The notes under the pieces were generated by a model. The model had not been told where the DNA came from and made no database searches. It saw only the letters and a list, made by a program, of their open reading frames with translations. Positions 24,626 through 38,877 of a stretch of 64,000 nucleotides of DNA are shown here, piece by piece. Within the stretch, counting starts at the first letter, position 1. Each line of letters opens with the position of its first letter. The position numbers and the translations under genes are program-made. Source of the DNA: Nitrospirota bacterium (GTDB lineage Bacteria; Nitrospirota; UBA9217); the NCBI GenBank assembly GCA_963754875.1, contig CAVWHO010000020.1:352001-416000 (forward strand). The letters run 5' to 3'.

Positions 24626-25654
24626 CTATGAACTTTGTGTAAAGATTTTCTCCGGCATAAAGGGAACTCCATCTCGCATGATGTAGTACGCTGCCCGCGC
24701 CAGTTTGTGGGCCAGGGCTTGATGGGCTATCATGGCGTTGGTCTTTTGCATCTTGCGCTGGTAATATGCCCGGGCTTCCGGATAATAGCGCCGGGCGATC
24801 TCGGCAGCTTCGGAAAAGGCCCATGCCAGGTACTTGTTGCCGCTTTTCTTGTTCCCTTTGCCCTTTTTCTTGTCGTTGCTGATCCATTTGGTTGAAACTT
24901 TCCGGCAGTAGGAACAATAGTTGCCGACTTGCGCGAAGCGGCTGATCGGGCCGGTCTCCAGCATGATGGTAAGTCCCAACGTTTTACCCACTCCCGGCAA
25001 CGTGAGGAGATTTTTGTATGGTTCGCGCAGCTCCATTCTGTCTTCTATGATGCTCTCAACCGTTTTGATCTTGAGCGTCAGAAAATCTATGGACTCCTTG
25101 CTGATCTTGCCGGCCAAGGCCAGGTCCTCGTTCTGCTCAAGAAACGGCGCAACGCGATCCGTTTTCAATGCCTTGACGTCGTTCGTCTTGAGCCGGAACC
25201 CGTTGTTACGGCAAATGATGTTCTGCAAACTGATGATGAGCGAGGTCCTGAGCTTTACGAGATGACTTCGTTTGCGTAACAAGTCACGGACTGGTCGATC
25301 TTCTTTCGGGTAAATGTAGCCTTCGGGAAGGATCCCGAGCCGCAGCATCTCGGCCAGCCAGAAGGCATCATGCTGATCGTCTGAATACTTGAGCCCCTTA
25401 TATTGCTTTATCTCCGTAGGGTTTGCGAGATGCACCTTGTATCCTTCTGCCATGAGTGCATCCACCAACCAGTACCAGTTGTACGTGGACTCGATGACGA
25501 TGCCGATAATCGTATCCTTGTATGGTGCGAGAGCGGAAAGAATTTGTTCCGGATCATTGGGAAGCTTCTTTTTGAACACCCGTTTACCAGTTTCATCGAT
25601 GATCGCCAGATAACTGTTGCTTGAATGTAGATCAATTCCTGTGTACAATCTCAT
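24626..25654 (-). CDS. IS110-family DEDD recombinase/transposase
   Basis: GIDLH, IVIEST, KYSDDQHDA, TLPGVG, GNKYLAWAF, ALAHKLAR. Confidence 0.95.
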   Translation of the reverse strand: MRLYTGIDLHSSNSYLAIIDETGKRVFKKKLPNDPEQILSALAPYKDTIIGIVIESTYNWYWLVDALMAEGYKVHLANPTEIKQYKGLKYSDDQHDAFWLAEMLRLGILPEGYIYPKEDRPVRDLLRKRSHLVKLRTSLIISLQNIICRNNGFRLKTNDVKALKTDRVAPFLEQNEDLALAGKISKESIDFLTLKIKTVESIIEDRMELREPYKNLLTLPGVGKTLGLTIMLETGPISRFAQVGNYCSYCRKVSTKWISNDKKKGKGNKKSGNKYLAWAFSEAAEIARRYYPEARAYYQRKMQKTNAMIAHQALAHKLARAAYYIMRDGVPFMPEKIFTQSS

Positions 25655-25832
25655 AAAGCACCTCCTGGGATAAGATTGGTCTCTTCTCCCAAGAGCATAT
25701 CAGAGCTTAACCACTCTGGTATGCTCTGGAGGTGCCCTTTATATGGTTATACAGGTCTTTTCTTCTTGATATCGCTTCTTTATGATATGGTGATATGGCG
25801 GTTGGAGCGGTGAGCGCGAATCGTCATCATTC

Positions 25833-26240
25833 CTAGCCCCGCCCGGCCCGGAGGGTTTCCCAGAATTGCCTCGGTGTGATGATGGGGATGTTTTTGTATC
25901 GCTCTAAAACGAGCAGATCCTTGTCGCCGGTTATAAGGTAGTCCGCATGTCCTGCATCGGCAGCGCCGAGAACGGGAAGGTCCTCGTTGTCGCGGCACTG
26001 CACAGCAGTCACCGGCAGCGGTACCGCAAGAATGGAATATTCTCTGAGATACGCCATGATGTCGTCGGCAATGGATGCTGGAAGCGCGATTTTTTGAATC
26101 AGTTTTTTACGAACTTCGGAAAGGATGTGCTCGCTGGTTATGACGGTGTGACCGGAAAGACAGAGTTCAAGAACGTCGGCGCTCAGGCCGCGCGCGGCAA
26201 ATGCCGCGATAATGACGTTCGTGTCCAGAAGGACTTTCAT
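25833..26240 (-). CDS. PIN-domain toxin (VapC-like)
   Basis: VLLDTNVIIAA, CRDNED, LITGDKDLL. Confidence 0.92.
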   Translation of the reverse strand: MKVLLDTNVIIAAFAARGLSADVLELCLSGHTVITSEHILSEVRKKLIQKIALPASIADDIMAYLREYSILAVPLPVTAVQCRDNEDLPVLGAADAGHADYLITGDKDLLVLERYKNIPIITPRQFWETLRAGRG

Positions 26241-26455
26241 GAAATAGCTTTGAATACATCTTCATCGGTCAGCAGGCCTTGTGATTCGGCAAACGGCAGG
26301 ACCTTTTTCCGCAACAGCTGAAACTGTTTGACCGAAAGGTAGCGGATAAGGGCATCTTTAATGATCTTGTCCTTCGATGTCTTTTCCGCTTTCATGACGG
26401 CTTCCAATTCTTTTTCGAGCTTGTCAGGTAATTTTATGGTAATACTTGATGGCAT
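26237..26455 (-). CDS. Ribbon-helix-helix (CopG-like) antitoxin
   Basis: ITIKLPDKL beta-helix-helix pattern; 4-bp overlap with PIN gene. Confidence 0.85.
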   Translation of the reverse strand: MPSSITIKLPDKLEKELEAVMKAEKTSKDKIIKDALIRYLSVKQFQLLRKKVLPFAESQGLLTDEDVFKAIS

Positions 26456-26473
26456 TGTTATCTCCTTTTATGT

Positions 26474-26707
26474 TTAACGCTTCTCTTCCCGGACTTCCTG
26501 TATCGCGTGAGCAATGTCTGATTCTATCTCGTCAGATGAATACTGCGAAGAACGGGCGTGGATTTTTCGCAGGATGCTGTCAAACCGCTTCTGCCATTCG
26601 TCATGGGAGAGGATTTTCAGCTCAACCTGTTCATGCTCTTTGAGGTCCATTTTCTGCAGCGGCTTGAGAACGCCGTTTTCGAATATTGCATTGACTACTT
26701 TGGACAT
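26474..26707 (-). CDS. AF2212/DUF104-like antitoxin
   Basis: AIFENGVLKPL...LKEHEQV; GGAGG RBS. Confidence 0.8.
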   Translation of the reverse strand: MSKVVNAIFENGVLKPLQKMDLKEHEQVELKILSHDEWQKRFDSILRKIHARSSQYSSDEIESDIAHAIQEVREEKR

Positions 26708-26926
26708 GCGGACCTCCTTTGCGATGGTTTCCGGGTTTTAATGCCGGGCAGTTTTACGCCCTCAATTGCAGAAGAGGTCACAACGGCTGTATAAAGCATG
26801 GATTTCCGCCGGGTTGGATTTTTGAGGTATGGATTAGTATTGATTAGCGAGTCTTTCTTCATAGGAATATTATAGTCGATATTAGAATCAAGTCAATCGA
26901 TTCTTAAAAGGAATAAAAGGGATTAT

Positions 26927-28495
26927 ATGACACCAGCAGCAATCGTTTCAAAACTCTGGAACTACTGTAACGTCCTCCGGGACGACGGAATGAGCTACGG
27001 CGATTATGTGGAGCAGCTCACGTACCTGCTGTTCCTCAAGATGGCCGACGAGCGCACGAAGCCGCCGTACAACCAGCCGAGCGCCGTGCCCGCGAAGTAC
27101 AACTGGCCGACGCTGCTCAAAAAAGACGGCGACGACCTGTTCGACCACTACCGCCACATGCTCGAAAGCCTGGGCAATGAAAAAGGTCTGCTCGGCCTGA
27201 TCTTCAACAAATCCCAGAACAAGTTTCAGGACCCTTCGAAGCTGCGACGGCTTGTTGTCGATCTGATCGATAAGGAAAACTGGTCGGTCATGAGCGCTGA
27301 TGTGAAAGGGGACGCATACGAGGGCCTCCTGGAGAAGAACGCACAGGATACCAAGTCCGGCGCAGGCCAGTACTTCACTCCCCGTCCTTTGATCCAGGCC
27401 ATGGTCGACGTGATCCAGCCGAAGCCGAAAGAGACCCTCTGCGATCCTGCGTGCGGGACCGGGGGCTTTCTCTTAGCTGCGCACGATTACGTGGTAAAGC
27501 ATAACCCGAACATGAGCGCCGATGAGAAGCGCAAACTCAAAGGCTCGACCTTTAAGGGCTGGGAGCTGGTCCAGAGCATGGCCCGGCTCTGCGCCATGAA
27601 CCTGATGCTCCACAGCATCGGGACCGACAAGGACCTTCCTATCATCGTTTCGGATTCTCTTGCTGCCGACCCGGGAGACAGGTTCGATATCGTACTGACC
27701 AATCCTCCCTTCGGGAAAAAGAGCAGCACCACTATCGTTGCTGAGAACGGCAAGGTATCACGGGAGACCGATATCATCGAGCGCGAGGACTTCTGGGCCA
27801 CGACGTCCAACAAACAGCTCAACTTCATCCAGCATGTAAAGACCCTTTTAAAACAGAATGGCCGCGCGGCGGTTGTCGTGCCGGATAACGTCCTGTTCGA
27901 AGGCGGGGCAGGGGAGACGGTCAGGAGAAAGCTCCTGCACGAGTGCGACGTGCATACCCTCCTGCGCCTGCCTACGGGCCTGTTCTACGCCCAGGGTGTG
28001 AAGGCGAACGTGCTGTTCTTCGACAAAAAGCCGGCAAGCGAAACACCTTGGACAAAGAAGCTCTGGATCTACGACCTCCGCACGAACATGCACTTCACGC
28101 TCAAGACGAGCTCCCTCCAGCGCTCAGATCTCGACGAGTTTGTGAAGAACTACAACCCCGAGAACCGCCATCAGCGTAAGGCTACCTGGAAGACTTCCCC
28201 CTCACCCCAGCCCTCTCCCCGAAGGGGCGAGGGAGTAAAAAATAAGCGCAAAACAAGTGGAGAGGAAGGTAAAAATGAAGGGCGCTGGCGGTCGTATACC
28301 TATGACGAACTCGTAAGCCGCGACAAGGCGAGCCTCGACATCTTCTGGCTCAAGGACGAATCCCTCGAAGCATCCGACAACTTGCCCGATCCCGACGTTA
28401 TCGCCCAGGAGATCGTGGAAGACCTGGAAGCTGCGTTGGAACAGTTTAGGGAGATTGTGGCTGATCTTGGTAGCAATAAGAAAAGTGCCGATTAA
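26927..28495 (+). CDS. hsdM: Type I restriction-modification N6-adenine methyltransferase (no hsdS/hsdR nearby)
   Basis: GAGQYFTPR, DPACGTGGFL, TNPPFG. Confidence 0.93.
   Translation: MTPAAIVSKLWNYCNVLRDDGMSYGDYVEQLTYLLFLKMADERTKPPYNQPSAVPAKYNWPTLLKKDGDDLFDHYRHMLESLGNEKGLLGLIFNKSQNKFQDPSKLRRLVVDLIDKENWSVMSADVKGDAYEGLLEKNAQDTKSGAGQYFTPRPLIQAMVDVIQPKPKETLCDPACGTGGFLLAAHDYVVKHNPNMSADEKRKLKGSTFKGWELVQSMARLCAMNLMLHSIGTDKDLPIIVSDSLAADPGDRFDIVLTNPPFGKKSSTTIVAENGKVSRETDIIEREDFWATTSNKQLNFIQHVKTLLKQNGRAAVVVPDNVLFEGGAGETVRRKLLHECDVHTLLRLPTGLFYAQGVKANVLFFDKKPASETPWTKKLWIYDLRTNMHFTLKTSSLQRSDLDEFVKNYNPENRHQRKATWKTSPSPQPSPRRGEGVKNKRKTSGEEGKNEGRWRSYTYDELVSRDKASLDIFWLKDESLEASDNLPDPDVIAQEIVEDLEAALEQFREIVADLGSNKKSAD
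28199..28234. repeat. 36-bp palindromic element inside hsdM (PSPQPSPRRGEG)
   Basis: CCCTCACCCCAGCCCTCTCCCCGAAGGGGCGAGGGA; 29/36 identical to 55110-55145. Confidence 0.75.
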
Positions 28496-34138: not shown

Positions 34139-35543
34139 ATGAAAACATTCGACCTTATCATTATCGGAGGCGGAGCCGGTGCATTCGGGGCCGCCATTCG
34201 TGCAGACGAACTCAAGGCGAATACGGCCATGATCAACTCAGGCCTGCCTCTGGGCGGTACCTGCGTGAACGTCGGCTGTGTACCGTCAAAGACGCTTCTC
34301 TACGCGGGAGAAATCCTGCATCTTGCCCGGAGTCACGGCATCCCCGGCATTGAACTTGCGGTGAAGAACTTCGATTTTAAAAAGGTTGTTCAGTATGATC
34401 TCGCCATCGTCGAAAAGCTTCGCACTAAAAAAATACAGCAAGGTGTTGAAAGACCTCGAACACGTCACCTTTCTTGAAGGACGTACGAAGTTTATTTCTC
34501 CGCATGAAGTCGCGGTAAACGGCGAGACGATCCGCGCTCAAAAGTTCATCATTGCCACTGGTTCAACTGCCACGGTGCCGCCTATCGAAGGCATCCGGGA
34601 CGCGGGATTCCTGACCCATATCGAAGCGCTCGCGCTCGAGAAGCATCCGAAAGAACTTACTATCATCGGCGGCGGACCTCTCGGGCTTGAATTCAGTCAG
34701 ATGTACTCGCGCTTCGGAACAAAGGTCACTCTCCTGAAACGTTCCCCGTCGATCTATCCCATATCCGAAAGCGAGCTGACGGAACGACTCGCGCAGATCC
34801 TTGCTCAGGAAGGGATCACCATCAAAAGAGGCGTTCAGATCAGGAAGGCTTGGGTGGAAGGGCGCAGGAAGAACGTATCATTCACGTTGGACGGGATAGA
34901 GGAGCGGGTATCGGCTGATGAAATACTACTTGCCTCAGGAAAGACGCCGAACACTTCCGGTCTCGGGCTTGAAACCGCGAAAGTCAATCTCGACAAAAGA
35001 CGGGCAATCGTGGTCAATGAATTCCTTCAGACCTCCAGTCCCGAAGTGTTTGCGGCCGGCGATGTGGCCAACCTTCCGTTGCGCCTTGAAAACACGGCAG
35101 GCCATGAAGGAACGCTCGCGGCGGAGAACGCTTTAACCGGCTCGCGAAAAACCATCGACTATGACACCGTTCCTTACACGATATTCACCGATCCTCAGCT
35201 TGCCGGAGTCGGTCTTACGGAAGAAGAGCAGATGAAGAGATTCGGCACATGCATGTGCCATACCGTATCGTTTACGGATGTTCCGAAAGCAATTATTACG
35301 AAGCGCACTGAAGGGCTGATCAAGATGGCAATCCACCCGAAGACAAAGCAGATAACCGGGGTTCATATCCTTGCGCCTCACGCCGGTGAGATTATTGCCC
35401 AGGCGATGATGTTAGTTAAGAACAAGAACACCATCGACGAAGTGGTGGATTCTTTGCCTATATTCCCGACGTTTTCTGAGTCAATTAAACTAGCGGCACT
35501 GTCGTTCACCAAGGATATATCAAAGCTGAGTTGCTGCATTTAA
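34139..35543 (+). CDS. merA: Mercuric reductase lacking N-terminal metal-binding domain; frameshift in A7 run 34427-34433
   Basis: GGGAGA FAD motif, GGTCVNVGCVPSK, C-terminal KLSCCI vicinal Cys pair. Confidence 0.88.
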
Positions 35544-35568
35544 GACAAGTCTGAAAGGAGAGATAAAA

Positions 35569-35886
35569 ATGAAAACAACATCGTGGATACCTTCTCTTGC
35601 AGGTTTTTTCTCTTTTGCCGCTGTTGCCGAGGCTCAGGCACAGACCCAAGGCTACGGCCCATGGCCGGGAATGATGGGCTGGGGGTGCGGCATGGGGTGG
35701 CCTTGGCCCATGATGTTTATATTCTGGATTGTTGTTATCGCCGGGATCGTTTATTTTGTGCGGTCGGCGCATAAGGGTCGCGGTGGCGCTCCGGAAGAAT
35801 CGGCCCTCGAGATCCTTAAAAAACGATATGCCAAGGGCGAGATCAGCAAGGATGAATACGAGAAAATAAAAAAGGATATTTCATAA
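35569..35886 (+). CDS. SHOCT-domain membrane protein
   Basis: Met/Gly/Trp-rich stretch, TM helix, ALEILKKRYAKGEISKDEYE. Confidence 0.88.
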   Translation: MKTTSWIPSLAGFFSFAAVAEAQAQTQGYGPWPGMMGWGCGMGWPWPMMFIFWIVVIAGIVYFVRSAHKGRGGAPEESALEILKKRYAKGEISKDEYEKIKKDIS

Positions 35887-35910
35887 CCTGTACGTGCAAG
35901 GGGGAAGAGC

Positions 35911-36897
35911 TTGAAAATCGACTGCTATATATCACAAGGATGCGGTTCCGAGGAAGCGTTAAAAGAGAACATCGCCCGTGCTTTGGAAAATGAAAAGATT
36001 CAGGCGGAAGTAGGTATGCACCGGATTAGCGATGAAAAAGCGGCAGAATTGAAACTCAGCGGATCACCGTCCGTATTCATAAACGGCAAGGAACTGCAGC
36101 CATCGGGCACCATCGGGTTTTCCTGAAGGATGTTCAAGGACGAGTCCGGCAGACTCGGGAATGTGCCGTCAGTGGATACGCTGCGCAAGGCTATGAAGGA
36201 GCCGAATTGCGGGGCAGGGTGCACGCCTGCTATCGGCAAGACTAATATGAAGAGCCTCATGGATCAGATCGGGGCAACGGTACGAGGGAGACTGGCTGAA
36301 GCCAATCTGAGTCAATCTGAAAACGAGACGCGAAAGTTTATTCTGAAAGAGTTCGCCAGAACAGGCAATCCACCTGACGAGAAAACAATAGTCGAGGCAA
36401 TGAAACTGCCGTCCATCGAGTCGGTTCGCAGGTTCATCGAAAGACTGCACAAGGCGGACATCCTGACGATGGAAGGCGGGGAGATCATATCCGCCTACCC
36501 CTTTTCCGCAAAACAGACCCGTCACAAAGTGGTGTTCCCTGACGGTCACGAGATATACTCGCTTTGCGCGACAGACGCTCTGGGCATTCATTTCATGCTC
36601 AGAGAGAACATCGTTGTCCGGTCACGCTGCCCGGAGTGCGACGGAGAAATAAAGATCGAAGTGAAGGACGGTAAGATCGTCTCTTCCGTTCCGGATGGAG
36701 TGGTTGAATTTGTCAGCAGCGGGGACCACTGTGGATGCACCGCAAAGACCTTTTGCCCGTTCATGAACTTCTTCTGCTCGAAGGACCATCTTGAGAAGTG
36801 GCGGGAAAAGAACCCCGCCTCCGCTAACGGCGAAATGTACCAGCTTCAGCAGGTCCTGGAGCATGGGAAAAACATCTTCGGAGATTTTCTGAAATAA
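35911..36897 (+). CDS. merB: Probable selenoprotein: thioredoxin-like domain (UGA at codon 72) fused to MerB-like organomercurial lyase
   Basis: ORFs 35911..36126 and 36130..36897 are in frame across TGA (GFS-U-RMF); MerB motifs AYPFS, CATDAL, FCPFMNFF. Confidence 0.8.
36141..36157 (+). promoter_or_regulatory. Candidate bacterial SECIS hairpin
   Basis: CGAGTC-CGGCA-GACTCG, 14 nt after the in-frame TGA, G-containing loop. Confidence 0.72.
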
Positions 36898-36922
36898 ACA
36901 GACTGCAATACCTGGAGGGCAA

Positions 36923-37282
36923 GTGGTGAGCAGAATAACAAAATCGGCTATTTTCATTGTGTTTTGCGCTCTGACGGTGATCTCGCTCTGTAAATCTGCG
37001 TCAGCATGCCAGGTGGACGAGTTTTACATGACGAAGGAAGGAGCTTTAGCCGCTTCTACTTCTGAGACATTAAATCTGGCGATCAAGCTCGAAGAATAAG
37101 GTAACAAAGAAAAGCTTGCAGACCTCATAAAGAGCGGGACTGTTCTGCGGCTGACAGACAACGCCAAGGTTCAGGTTCTGGAAAGATCCGTTGAATTCAA
37201 AACGCTCAAAATAAAGTTCCCGGATGGAAGTGATCCATATTGGGTAAAGGACGGCTCGTTGAAACAAATCAACTGTAATTAA
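36923..37282 (+). pseudogene. Exported protein gene with internal TAA (37097-37099)
   Basis: GGAGG RBS, signal peptide ending ASA, frame continues 60 codons past the stop. Confidence 0.65.
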
Positions 37283-37512
37283 CTGACAATCTTGCTGCTT
37301 AGAGAGCGAGGACTATCCGAACCGAAATCGGGGGCCTTGTCTTTGTAAATCAGGGGGATCATGGCGGTTCCGAAATAAAGATGTAGTATTTTTCTGACGA
37401 TTTAGACCGAATTCGATATCAAAGTCGCCGGCAAGTGTATGGACCGCGTGCAGCACGATCATGAGGAAAGCAATGATCGTCCGGTTGAAACGTTTTTATC
37501 ATCCATTCCTCA

Positions 37513-37983
37513 TTATTTCTCTTTCCACATTCTTGCGTCAAAGACAAAGGGCATTGGGTCGCTAATGCGGATTTTCTTGAAATCGCGGTGAGCGGGATTG
37601 AGCAGATAGTTCCAACTTTTGGGAACCAGCACGGAGGGGACCCGGAAAACCGCTGTGTCCGCCTTCTTTGCCCAGGTAGAACCGATCTCTTTGGTTGAAT
37701 CCCTCGGCGGTTCGGCGGTCCAGTCATCGGGGAGATCGGCGCTCTTCAGCTTTTCAATAGGGACGCTGTCCGGAATCTCGATTTTATAGTACACGAACTT
37801 GATGTGAGAAGCGTCGAACCCCAGGTGAACGAACTTCTCCAGAACGGACAGGGCGATGGACTCGCTTACGTAAATGACGGGTATACCCTGGTGATGCCAT
37901 CGGCCGCTTACGCGGCGCGCTCCTTCGCCGGTAAACGCTTCCTTGGCACGCTTCGCTTTATCCAGGCGCCAGGCAGTGATCAC
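37513..37983 (-). CDS. RES-domain toxin
   Basis: AWRL, GEGARRVSGRWH, YVSES...LE, VPSVLVP...NYLLNPAH. Confidence 0.93.
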   Translation of the reverse strand: MITAWRLDKAKRAKEAFTGEGARRVSGRWHHQGIPVIYVSESIALSVLEKFVHLGFDASHIKFVYYKIEIPDSVPIEKLKSADLPDDWTAEPPRDSTKEIGSTWAKKADTAVFRVPSVLVPKSWNYLLNPAHRDFKKIRISDPMPFVFDARMWKEK

Positions 37984-38420
37984 GAGATAACCCCGTATTC
38001 AATGCGCCAGAGAAGGTCTTCAACCTCCTTTGCACCGGCTTCGGTATGCAGCAGATCAAGGGGTGTTTTACCGCCTAATCCCACCTGTTGACGACGAAGC
38101 CACTCCTTGGCTTTTTCCTCGTTCTCCAAGACCTCACAGGCGATCGAAAAGATCCTTGCCAGCCGGTAAAGCCGGTCGCTGGCGATGGCCGACAGGCGCT
38201 GACTCGGCGAGTTGCGGACTCGGGCCAGGGTTCGTTCGCTTACCTCGATTATGCCGGCAAAAATGGGAAGGGGAAGGTCCAGCAGGCCCCGGACGTGGTT
38301 GCCCGCTTTATAAGGGAACCCCTCGCGGATGAGCTTGTCCAAGTCCAGGGTGCTTTTAATTTTGCGTCCAAGAGATGTCTGTCCGCCAAGGACTGATACT
38401 ATATTCTGTTCGGTAAACAT
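37980..38420 (-). CDS. Xre/MbcA/ParS-family antitoxin
   Basis: HTH with VSERTLAR, SDRLYRLARI, LGGKTPLDLL; 4-bp overlap with RES gene. Confidence 0.92.
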   Translation of the reverse strand: MFTEQNIVSVLGGQTSLGRKIKSTLDLDKLIREGFPYKAGNHVRGLLDLPLPIFAGIIEVSERTLARVRNSPSQRLSAIASDRLYRLARIFSIACEVLENEEKAKEWLRRQQVGLGGKTPLDLLHTEAGAKEVEDLLWRIEYGVIS

Positions 38421-38434
38421 GGAAGTAACCTCCT

Positions 38435-38476
38435 GTCATATGGCATTATAGTATCAGACAAATGGCATGCTGTCAA
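38435..38476 (-). promoter_or_regulatory. xre-res promoter with overlapping operator-like repeats
   Basis: TTGACA-17-TACTAT; repeats TGCCATTTGTC and TGCCATATGAC. Confidence 0.65.
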
Positions 38477-38877
38477 TGGCGATGTAGTTCGAGAATATCA
38501 TGTTTCCGATGAATTAAAGGGAACCGAACGCTCAGGCAGGCCACAAGAGTTCCCCAAAAGTGATCAGACGATTTAAGCGAAATTGTGAAGTGCAGAAAAA
38601 ATACGCTTTTGCATCTCTTGAATATTCCAAAGAAAATTCGAAGGGATTTTATCGCGGGATACTGACCTTTATGCACGAGCGAAATGAACTGCTACAGTAA
38701 CTGACATGACATAGAAAAAGGATTGGCTTTTGTAAGCCAACCCTTTGAAAACTTCGTAGAGCTGAGGGGGAGTCTCTCGTGCTTCGCTTCACGAAAGGGC
38801 TCGCCCTCTCGTGTGCTCTCCGAAAGCATGAGGGAAATCCTTTCCCTCAAACTCCCTTTGGTTCGATCCTCCTCATC

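Follow-up and report, generated by a model that had tools for sequence, protein, structure and literature searches.

We analysed a stretch of 64,000 nucleotides from a Nitrospirota bacterium (lineage UBA9217; contig CAVWHO010000020.1, positions 352,001 to 416,000; hereafter the window), in which a preliminary description had proposed a hidden selenoprotein of 328 residues. The conservation of its TGA codon, the existence of cysteine counterparts, covariation in an adjacent hairpin and the selenocysteine (Sec) machinery of the genome all support this proposal. We therefore consider it highly probable that positions 35911 to 36897 of the window are a genuine single selenoprotein gene, in which a Sec-bearing thioredoxin-fold domain precedes a MerB-like organomercurial lyase domain. 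That this stretch is a single-gene selenoprotein fusion in the context of mercury-resistance (mer) genes is, judged by sequence comparison, likely. The gene begins with TTG at 35911 and ends with TAA at 36895-36897, and its frame crosses one in-frame TGA at 36124-36126. Translation bears out what had been noticed first: 71 codons precede the TGA and the same frame resumes as S-U-R-M-F and continues without a further stop through the MerB domain. Standard gene calling splits the gene, as had been anticipated, into open reading frames (ORFs) at 35911..36126 (71 aa) and 36130..36897 (255 aa, beginning with ATG). The fusion gene with its parts, merA, the SHOCT gene and the small downstream ORF all lie on the forward (+) strand. 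Across the whole fusion gene (35911..36897) we found 12 distinct full-length relatives in 11 genomes, each with one TGA at the same codon. The start codon of relatives lies at the same position and is GTG or ATG, and a purine-rich stretch upstream of the TTG (35896..35905, AAGGGGGAAGAG region) may act as a Shine-Dalgarno sequence.

A six-frame search of 61 related genomes yielded matches in 36 of them. Eight places match all 328 residues, each with exactly one TGA, and two of these belong to the genome of the window itself; in 25 further places, which likewise have a TGA each, the match is limited to the first ~100 residues, and two places have no stop. After extraction and alignment of the 35 relatives, the TGA falls into one alignment column in 33 of 33 Sec-type relatives, which are 35-100% identical to the window sequence, and both stop-free relatives, from the same phylum, have cysteine in this column (S-C-R-T-Y; loci L034 and L035). 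The pairing of TGA with cysteine at codon 72, proposed as a check of the preliminary description, is thus observed. The Sec residue of the 33 Sec-type sequences is embedded in the motif G-[F/I/L/V]-[S/T/A/L]-U-R-x-[F/Y]-x-D-E-S-G-R-L-x-N-V-P-S. Over the 21 codons after the TGA, the mean pairwise difference of these 33 sequences is 0.23 at the first and at the second codon position and 0.50 at the third, which is the pattern expected of a translated frame. A scan with one genome per species gave 70 loci; it was keyed on DESGRLxNVP, the peptide encoded by the hairpin, derived from 22 Sec-type rows, and is therefore biased to Sec forms and says nothing on the frequency of Cys forms. U-R-x-[F/Y]-x-D-E-S-G is found near codon 72 in 68 of these loci, the exceptions being L117, which matches only residues 73-96, and L111, which has no such motif in the reading frame examined. 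The 70 loci derive from Nitrospirota/Thermodesulfovibrionales, Deltaproteobacteria (Syntrophaceae, Smithella, Desulfomonilaceae), Thermoleophilia, Chloroflexia and others. Overall, more than 70 genomes of several phyla share the TGA at this codon. A third member of the family in the genome of the window (C13:84637-84936, L037) stands alone, with ~100 aa; it shares the TGA and the hairpin and is 39-41% identical to the window domain. Two loci, L009/L060 and L054, keep a linker of the fused type, but their frame is lost ahead of a MerB domain, and they may represent decayed fusions.

Sequence databases contain uninterrupted versions of the same protein. An exhaustive search of 1.84 billion representatives, made without a profile, gave 1539 proteins at E <= 0.001, of which 150 were listed. 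Among the matches listed are homologues of 317-343 aa that align from the N- to the C-terminus and comprise the same two domains without interruption, and all 16 that we retrieved carry cysteine at the Sec position ([S/K]-C-R-[L/V/R]-[Y/F]). Across Cys homologues as a whole, the residue before this C-R is Ser, Lys or Gly. The existence of such Cys fusions indicates that the two-domain polypeptide is a normal protein, of which the window encodes the Sec version. Database homologues of the N-terminal domain present a uniform picture: 120 of 120 among the matches listed end at the TGA (query coverage 70-71%), mostly after 71 aa, and these entries are named 'hypothetical protein' or, wrongly, NusG.

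The codon 36124..36126, read as Sec72, is followed by a hairpin of 6 bp with a G in its loop, which had been noticed 14 nt past the TGA. Its position proved correct, and comparison reveals that it is conserved. CGAGUC at 36141-36146 pairs with GACUCG at 36152-36157, enclosing the 5-nt loop CGGCA at 36147-36151 with its conserved GG, so that the SECIS-like element spans 36141..36157. A bacterial selenocysteine insertion sequence (SECIS) has 16-37 nt between UGA and loop and a G in the apical loop; here the loop begins 20 nt after the UGA. The only consensus helix returned by RNAalifold is exactly this hairpin. Pairing is found in 95.5% of cells, and sliding the 3' arm lowers this share to 10.6-38.9%. 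Of the 33 sequences, 15 have CG and 9 have UA as the closing pair, which is broken in the other 9, and another stem pair is AU in 29, GU in 3 and GC in 1. Third codon positions within the stem never vary (GAG in 29 of 33 and GGG in 4; CTC in 32 of 33 and CCC in 1), those within the loop vary freely, and the loop conforms to NGGNN with invariant GG. Cys homologues lack the D-E-S-G-R-L peptide encoded here, which fits a constraint at the RNA level that is limited to the Sec forms. The genome also has the machinery to insert Sec, as the preliminary description had required: selA, selB and tRNA-Sec are clustered within 8 kb on the contig of the window, and selD on another contig (C13:53826-54737) contains an in-frame TGA itself and encodes a selenophosphate synthetase of the Sec type. 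The protein matches for selA, selB and selD all exceed their family cut-offs.

The N-terminal domain (residues 1-97, 35911..36201) had been called a thioredoxin. The thioredoxin fold stands; the plain label does not. The domain aligns end to end with NF049942, the 'DF family (seleno)protein' (model positions 2-96 of 96), and profile matches over residues 1-60 connect it to the MJ0307 thioredoxin 1fo5 (E 8.8e-5) and to MTH895, 1ilo (E 5.1e-4). AlphaFold2 predicts it with per-residue confidence (predicted local distance difference test, pLDDT) of 79-97 in the order beta-alpha-beta-alpha-beta, followed by an inserted hairpin with Sec72 and a final helix at 88-96. Residues 73-97 with this conserved last helix are modelled with high confidence and stay in frame in the stand-alone relatives of ~100 aa. 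The motif at Cys11 is C-G-S-E and not CxxC. Cys11 (35941..35943) is invariant in a 34-sequence alignment and aligns with the first Cys of the CxxC of 1fo5 and 1ilo; the second Cys is missing. In the segment CYISQGC, to which attention had been drawn earlier, it is only this second cysteine that is invariant, the first (Cys5) being Val, Ile or Leu in many relatives. Cys11 and Sec72 form two conserved Cys/Sec positions that are common to members above the NF049942 cut-off. We reject a plain CxxC thioredoxin on account of the C-G-S-E motif and of the partner Sec72 in the insert. DF-family/DUF2703-like thioredoxin-fold domain is the better name. DUF2703 (PF10865, gathering cut-off 23.6) gave no match for the window protein at E <= 0.01, and the window protein also falls under the cut-offs of TIGR00411 and TIGR00412; the Cys homologue L035 from the same phylum passes DUF2703 with 24.9 bits vs 23.6.

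The Sec site of the window appears to be a regular feature of the wider DF family. As far as the accessible part of the report goes, the family was named for a deep-Sep find in Desulfosediminicola flagellatus, with Cys homologues reported and no TGA-containing homologues elsewhere (PMC12013277). In row 14 of supplement file 4 of that report the DF protein has Sec at the position equivalent to Cys11, and '...FGIS' is the end of its sequence; the next residue would be the site occupied by Sec in the window. Our search of 401 Desulfobacterota genomes with NF049942 gave a match in 76 and a match above cut-off in 22. The latter comprise 24 places, of which 11 have no stop, 9 have one TGA and 4 have two. 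Among the 15 of these places that were read, those with a single TGA carry it at the U-R-x-Y site (5 of 5), and those with two have one at each of the two sites (4 of 4). Members above the cut-off thus exist in Cys/Cys, Cys/Sec and Sec/Sec forms, and the TGA at the U-R-x-Y site of Desulfobacterota indicates that the Sec site of the window is a regular Sec site of the family at large. Compared with members that have TGA at both sites (L130-L133), the published founder record was probably cut off at its second Sec.

A variable and probably disordered linker (residues 98-112, 36202..36246; pLDDT <50 at 99-112) separates the two domains. It differs in sequence among fused relatives and holds Cys100 and Cys104, neither of which is conserved. 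The MerB-like organomercurial lyase domain behind it (residues 113-328, 36247..36894) consists of a helical N-terminal part and the catalytic core and is recognised by Pfam, phmmer and Foldseek. Pfam MerB (PF03243) matches residues 198-324 with 103.4 bits over profile positions 1-126 of 126 (gathering cut-off 27), and phmmer finds MerB2 5c17 with E 1.1e-12 and MerB 3f2g/1s6l with ~1e-5. The AlphaFold2 model, which was computed from an 85-row alignment, has a mean pLDDT of 90.2 and shows domain 1-97, the disordered linker 99-112 and a MerB-like body. In Foldseek this predicted body matches 5c17 with E 1.6e-13 and a target-normalised template modelling (TM) score of 0.81, and MerB entries with E up to 5e-11 and target-normalised TM scores of 0.70-0.73 (3f0o 0.72). 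The preliminary description had recognised the Cys-x-x-Asp motif and the distal Cys of MerB in CATD and FCP, in agreement with our alignment to the solved MerB 3f2g. Here, Cys219-Ala-Thr-Asp222 (36565..36576) aligns with 'wCAlD' and Cys282 in F-C-P (36754..36756) with the Cys of 'sFC', so that the triad Cys219, Asp222 and Cys282 is kept. We take the aligned positions to be the catalytic Cys96/Asp99/Cys159 of MerB. The lyase domain contains neither a TGA nor a C-U dipeptide. Just before Cys282, the loop Cys274-Gly-Cys276 (36730..36738; pLDDT <50 at 273-281) is conserved in all fused Sec forms and constitutes a possible extra Hg-handling pair. The closest relatives of the MerB domain among the matches listed, 49-56% identical, are P0123 (357 aa, with a MerR-type DNA-binding domain) and P0124 (361 aa, ArsR-type); they may be organomercurial-sensing regulators.

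The gene order in the window is a VOC/glyoxalase-family gene, merA, a gene for a membrane protein with a SHOCT domain, the fusion gene and a small ORF, followed by a RES/Xre toxin-antitoxin pair and ABC transporter genes on the other strand. Judged by this neighbourhood and by that of its relatives, the fusion gene belongs to a mercury-resistance cluster. merA (34139..35543) is of the core type: it starts at the FAD-binding motif, lacks an N-terminal metal-binding domain and has the C-terminal Cys-Cys. TIGR02053 matches its 3' part with 402.5 bits. In locus L051 the order is merR, merT, an HMA/MerP-like gene, merA, SHOCT and fusion, with a MerA that reaches 494.9 bits for TIGR02053 (cut-off 454.45), and in L052 it is merR, merA and fusion. 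Within flanks of 0.6-3 kb, merA lies upstream in 4 of 14 fused loci, and the others have unrelated neighbours. A search of the window's own genome with the L051 proteins found no close merR, merT or merP. The small membrane protein with its C-terminal SHOCT domain (35569..35886; Pfam SHOCT 38.5 bits) occupies the same place in L003, L051 and, in part, L036; it has 105 aa and a Trp/Gly/Met-rich segment. The small downstream ORF (36923..37099) has a signal-peptide-like N-terminus and matches no Pfam family. By tblastn, 7 of 14 related loci have a similar gene behind the fusion, which is longer there and encodes 118-123 aa vs 58 aa in the window (L049:3995-4363, L055:4012-4365, L052:4013-4366).

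A second copy of merA, SHOCT, fusion, small ORF and RES/Xre genes lies 72 kb downstream (C20:458364-462987, L036) and is 86% identical over 4.66 kb to 34139-38771. Its merA is in one frame, and its fusion protein is 85% identical with the TGA kept. The RES and Xre proteins are 100% identical between the copies, which marks the L036/window segment as a mosaic. The cluster is flanked (24626-28495, 37513-38420) by genes for an IS110-family transposase, a PIN-domain protein and a type I methylase subunit and by the RES/Xre pair, which suggests a mobile or island-like setting. The transposase gene and a DNA methylase gene are situated further upstream than the VOC-family gene. The two largest clusters of neighbours (15 and 12 loci) are antisense to the gene or overlap it and match no Pfam family; they were treated as spurious ORFs.

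A number of observations weigh against the interpretation given so far. The support for a selenoprotein is comparative; a search of public sequencing runs listed no RNA run and two DNA runs with small shares (0.08 and 0.05). In one representative, P0149 (105 aa), the Sec/Cys site is occupied by Arg. Folded as a single sequence the hairpin is ordinary, with z = 0.09 and 113 of 200 shuffles folding at least as well; since it is indistinguishable from shuffles in this respect, the evidence for the hairpin comes entirely from comparison. An Rfam scan of 35500-37200 at E <= 1 gave no family match. The N-terminal domain scores 49.0 bits (whole protein) or 52.9 bits (domain) against NF049942 and does not reach the cut-off of 70; the 23 Sec-type relatives tested, with 41-66 bits, all stay under this cut-off as well, and two of four Cys-type MerB fusions tested exceed it (108.5 and 104.2 bits). 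Pfam Thioredoxin_3 (PF13192) is likewise sub-threshold with 18.6-21.9 bits vs 24.8. For the lyase domain, the NCBIfam MerB equivalogs give 55.7 vs 200 bits (NF033555) and 65 vs 193 bits (NF009710), so its substrate is not certain. The predicted TM score (pTM) of the model is 0.65 and the relative placement of the two domains is uncertain. The merA of the window changes frame in an A7 run at ~34428-34434, with ...EKLRTKK upstream and KYSKVLKD... in another frame downstream. This may be a homopolymer base-calling error or a real inactivating mutation, and the cluster copy may not be fully functional; no such change of frame occurs in the merA orthologues of L036, L051 and L052. Finally, the stand-alone relatives (57 loci) adjoin ArsR-type regulators (12), ArsP_1 permeases (11), Thioredoxin_3 proteins (6), ACR3-type carriers (6) and CMD-family proteins (6). 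As they lie mostly beside ars-type genes, the chemistry of the domain need not be specific for Hg.

What could a selenol contribute to an organomercurial lyase? MerB keeps Hg(II) on its two cysteines after protonolysis, and either thiols or the N-terminal domain of MerA are required to unload it. Selenols surpass thiols as ligands in both quality and speed, and Hg binds selenium more tightly than sulphur. UGA 36124-36126 is most probably read as Sec72, directed by the hairpin 36141-36157 and by the organism's own SelA, SelB, SelD and tRNA-Sec. We propose that the MerB domain would cleave the Hg-C bond and hold Hg(II), and the tethered thiol-selenol pair Cys11/Sec72 would take Hg(II) off the MerB site and hand it to the C-terminal Cys pair of MerA. 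Cys11/Sec72 would thus stand in for the N-terminal domain of MerA or for the small thiols of other systems. Because this MerA lacks the N-terminal domain and the MerB has its own soft-ligand pair on a flexible linker, a Hg relay is the most economical reading. We put forward this mechanism tentatively.

The history of the fusion bears on this proposal. An unrooted tree of the N-terminal domain was obtained by quick search from a short alignment of 73 rows and 101 columns. In it, the 15 Sec fusions form one clade (84% support in the Shimodaira-Hasegawa-like approximate likelihood ratio test, SH-aLRT) that is nested among stand-alone Sec forms (98%), and Cys fusions fall in at least two other places. 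This is suggestive only of a fusion to MerB having arisen more than once; if recurrent, the fusion would argue for a functional link of the two domains. Stand-alone relatives occur in at least 60 species, mostly annotated as 71-aa fragments and often beside ars genes. In its widest form, our proposal is a built-in selenol relay for Hg(II), the first Sec in the enzymatic core of the canonical mer pathway, formed by a domain that was joined to MerB several times and whose stand-alone relatives of ~100 aa would be general soft-metal(loid) hand-off proteins of anaerobes. We regard this wide form as speculative, a possibility and not an expectation.

As the main alternative, the domain could be a redox partner, in which a selenenylsulfide of Cys11 and Sec72 serves as reductant of the MerB cysteines or of thiol-dependent metal(loid) enzymes. 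This would agree with the thioredoxin fold, with the location of Cys11 at the nucleophilic position of CxxC and with the neighbourhood of stand-alone relatives, which adjoin ars genes and Thioredoxin_3 proteins. In addition, a DUF2703 protein of Rhodococcus was proposed, according to the accessible part of that study, as the thioredoxin of an arsenate-reductase pathway (PMC6514093), and the Cys homologue L035 passes Pfam DUF2703. However, the second Cys of CxxC is missing, and with its partner placed in an insert at a distance of 61 residues, Cys11 could as well belong to a metal-binding pair as to a redox pair. The apparently recurrent fusion, specifically to MerB, and a MerA without N-terminal domain fit a hand-off of Hg instead. 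We consider a purely redox function rather unlikely, bearing in mind that a redox role and the Hg relay are not mutually exclusive.

The preliminary description had also raised the separate translation of MerB. In such a selenium-dependent dual output, the fusion would be made with selenium, and without it ribosomes would stop at the UGA and restart at AUG 36130, 4 nt on, to give a 71-residue piece and a free MerB. An ATG does lie two codons past the TGA, Met74 is kept in 15 of 15 fused rows (U-R-M-F), and gene callers yield exactly this product of 254/255 aa (P0122). Yet stand-alone forms, in which there is no MerB to be restarted, commonly have Met74 as well, and the AGGA abuts the ATG without a spacer, which makes a poor ribosome-binding site. 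A free MerB would furthermore carry 24 residues of a severed thioredoxin-fold helix. Since residues 73-97 form the conserved last helix, which the stand-alone relatives keep, translation from ATG 36130 is unlikely to give the main product, and a regulated dual output is improbable.

We give a similarly small chance to a lyase that acts on an organometal(loid) other than organomercury, e.g. on other carbon-metal bonds as proposed for SaoL. The best NCBIfam match of the lyase part is indeed SaoL (NF040728), which outscores MerB with 90.1 vs 55.7-65 bits, all of them under the respective cut-offs (140 for SaoL), and the nearest relatives of the lyase domain among the matches listed are fused to MerR- or ArsR-type domains (P0123, P0124). 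The Cys-Asp-Cys triad of MerB is intact, however, and the marks of SaoL, a CU dipeptide and a second TGA, are missing. The neighbours are merA here and merR/merT/merP/merA in L051, and not genes of the SAO transporter.

Finally, a TGA that is a true stop between two genes, or a sequencing error or pseudogene lesion, is very hard to reconcile with our data: standard gene calling does give two ORFs, all 120 database homologues of the domain among the matches listed do end there and merA has a probable homopolymer frame error nearby, but the same codon is TGA in more than 70 genomes of several phyla with a conserved downstream frame and hairpin, so that an error or pseudogene is rejected, and a product of 71 residues would lose the last helix of a fold that Cys homologues encode straight through.

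Parts of this picture are already known, namely the DF family (seleno)protein, MerB and, in databases, Cys-type DF-MerB fusions. In the accessible text of a 2022 report, the curators of the NCBI selenoprotein references found no selenoprotein involved in mercury resistance (10.1101/2022.07.06.499078). NCBIfam includes predicted selenoproteins of MerT-like and HMA-like metal-binding families. A 2026 review, in its accessible part, covers predicted MerT-like and HMA-like selenoproteins, SaoL and 'hypothetical protein DF' and includes no MerB fusion, and the accessible part of a mer-gene survey reports MerB in Nitrospirae and does not mention fusions. Our literature search, which lay outside subscription journals, found no description of a Sec DF-MerB fusion, of its canonical mer setting or of the size of the Sec subfamily under the cut-off. 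If our interpretation is true, a Sec-MerB fusion in merR-merT-merP-merA clusters puts selenium in the enzymatic part of the pathway, and it provides a natural Cys/Sec pair with which the departure of Hg(II) from MerB could be tested. In Nitrospirota, Desulfobacterota and other anaerobes, these genes escape surveys of merB and of selenoproteomes or enter them with a wrong size, because the subfamily lies under the curated cut-off and database homologues end at the TGA.

The protein combines features of several known systems. It shares with the DF family the same domain of ~96 residues and the same two Cys/Sec positions; in contrast to it, the Sec forms of the window type stay under the cut-off of 70 and form a clade of their own (98% SH-aLRT), and Sec is at the second site, whereas the published DF record has it only at the N-terminal position. 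With MerB (1S6L, 3F0O, 3F0P) and MerB2 (5C17) it has the fold, with target-normalised TM scores of 0.71-0.81, the Pfam match and the triad in common, and its gene lies beside merA. Identity to them is only 19-22%, however, and the Sec-bearing N-terminal domain sets the window protein apart, as do a C-G-C loop and a C-P-E-C pair, both of which the aligned MerB lacks. Like SaoL, it is a MerB-homologous selenoprotein with database records that end at the TGA. SaoL carries, as far as the accessible report shows, a C-U dipeptide inside the MerB-like domain ~50 residues from the C-terminus and belongs to a nine-gene transporter (SAO) locus (10.1101/2022.07.06.499078). Here, Sec is located in a separate fused domain and the neighbours are merA, SHOCT, VOC-family and toxin-antitoxin genes. 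Membership in SaoL was rejected in view of the score (90.1 < 140 bits), a lyase domain free of TGA and the absence of a SAO neighbourhood.

The Cys-type fusions (P0140, P0141, P0155, P0217 and 12 others) resemble the window protein in domain order, length (317-343 aa), the two Cys positions and the triad, but are only 23-29% identical to it, have Cys for Sec and a C-P-N motif where it has C-G-S; their places elsewhere in the tree suggest separate fusion events. NmerA takes Hg(II) from MerB and passes it to the MerA core. The analogy of our fusion to NmerA and MerP would be functional only, in that a small domain with a soft-ligand pair is tethered or adjacent to a mer enzyme: NmerA has an unrelated ferredoxin-like HMA fold, is attached to MerA and uses Cys/Cys, whereas the window domain has a thioredoxin fold, sits on MerB and has Cys/Sec. 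The closest solved structures for the N-terminal domain are the MJ0307 and MTH895 ('ArsE') thioredoxins. An association with ars genes is common to the group of the window domain and the MJ0307/MTH895-DUF2703 group. However, the matches cover only residues 1-60, and where MJ0307 and MTH895 have CxxC, Cys11 of the window protein finds its partner in Sec72 of the insert.

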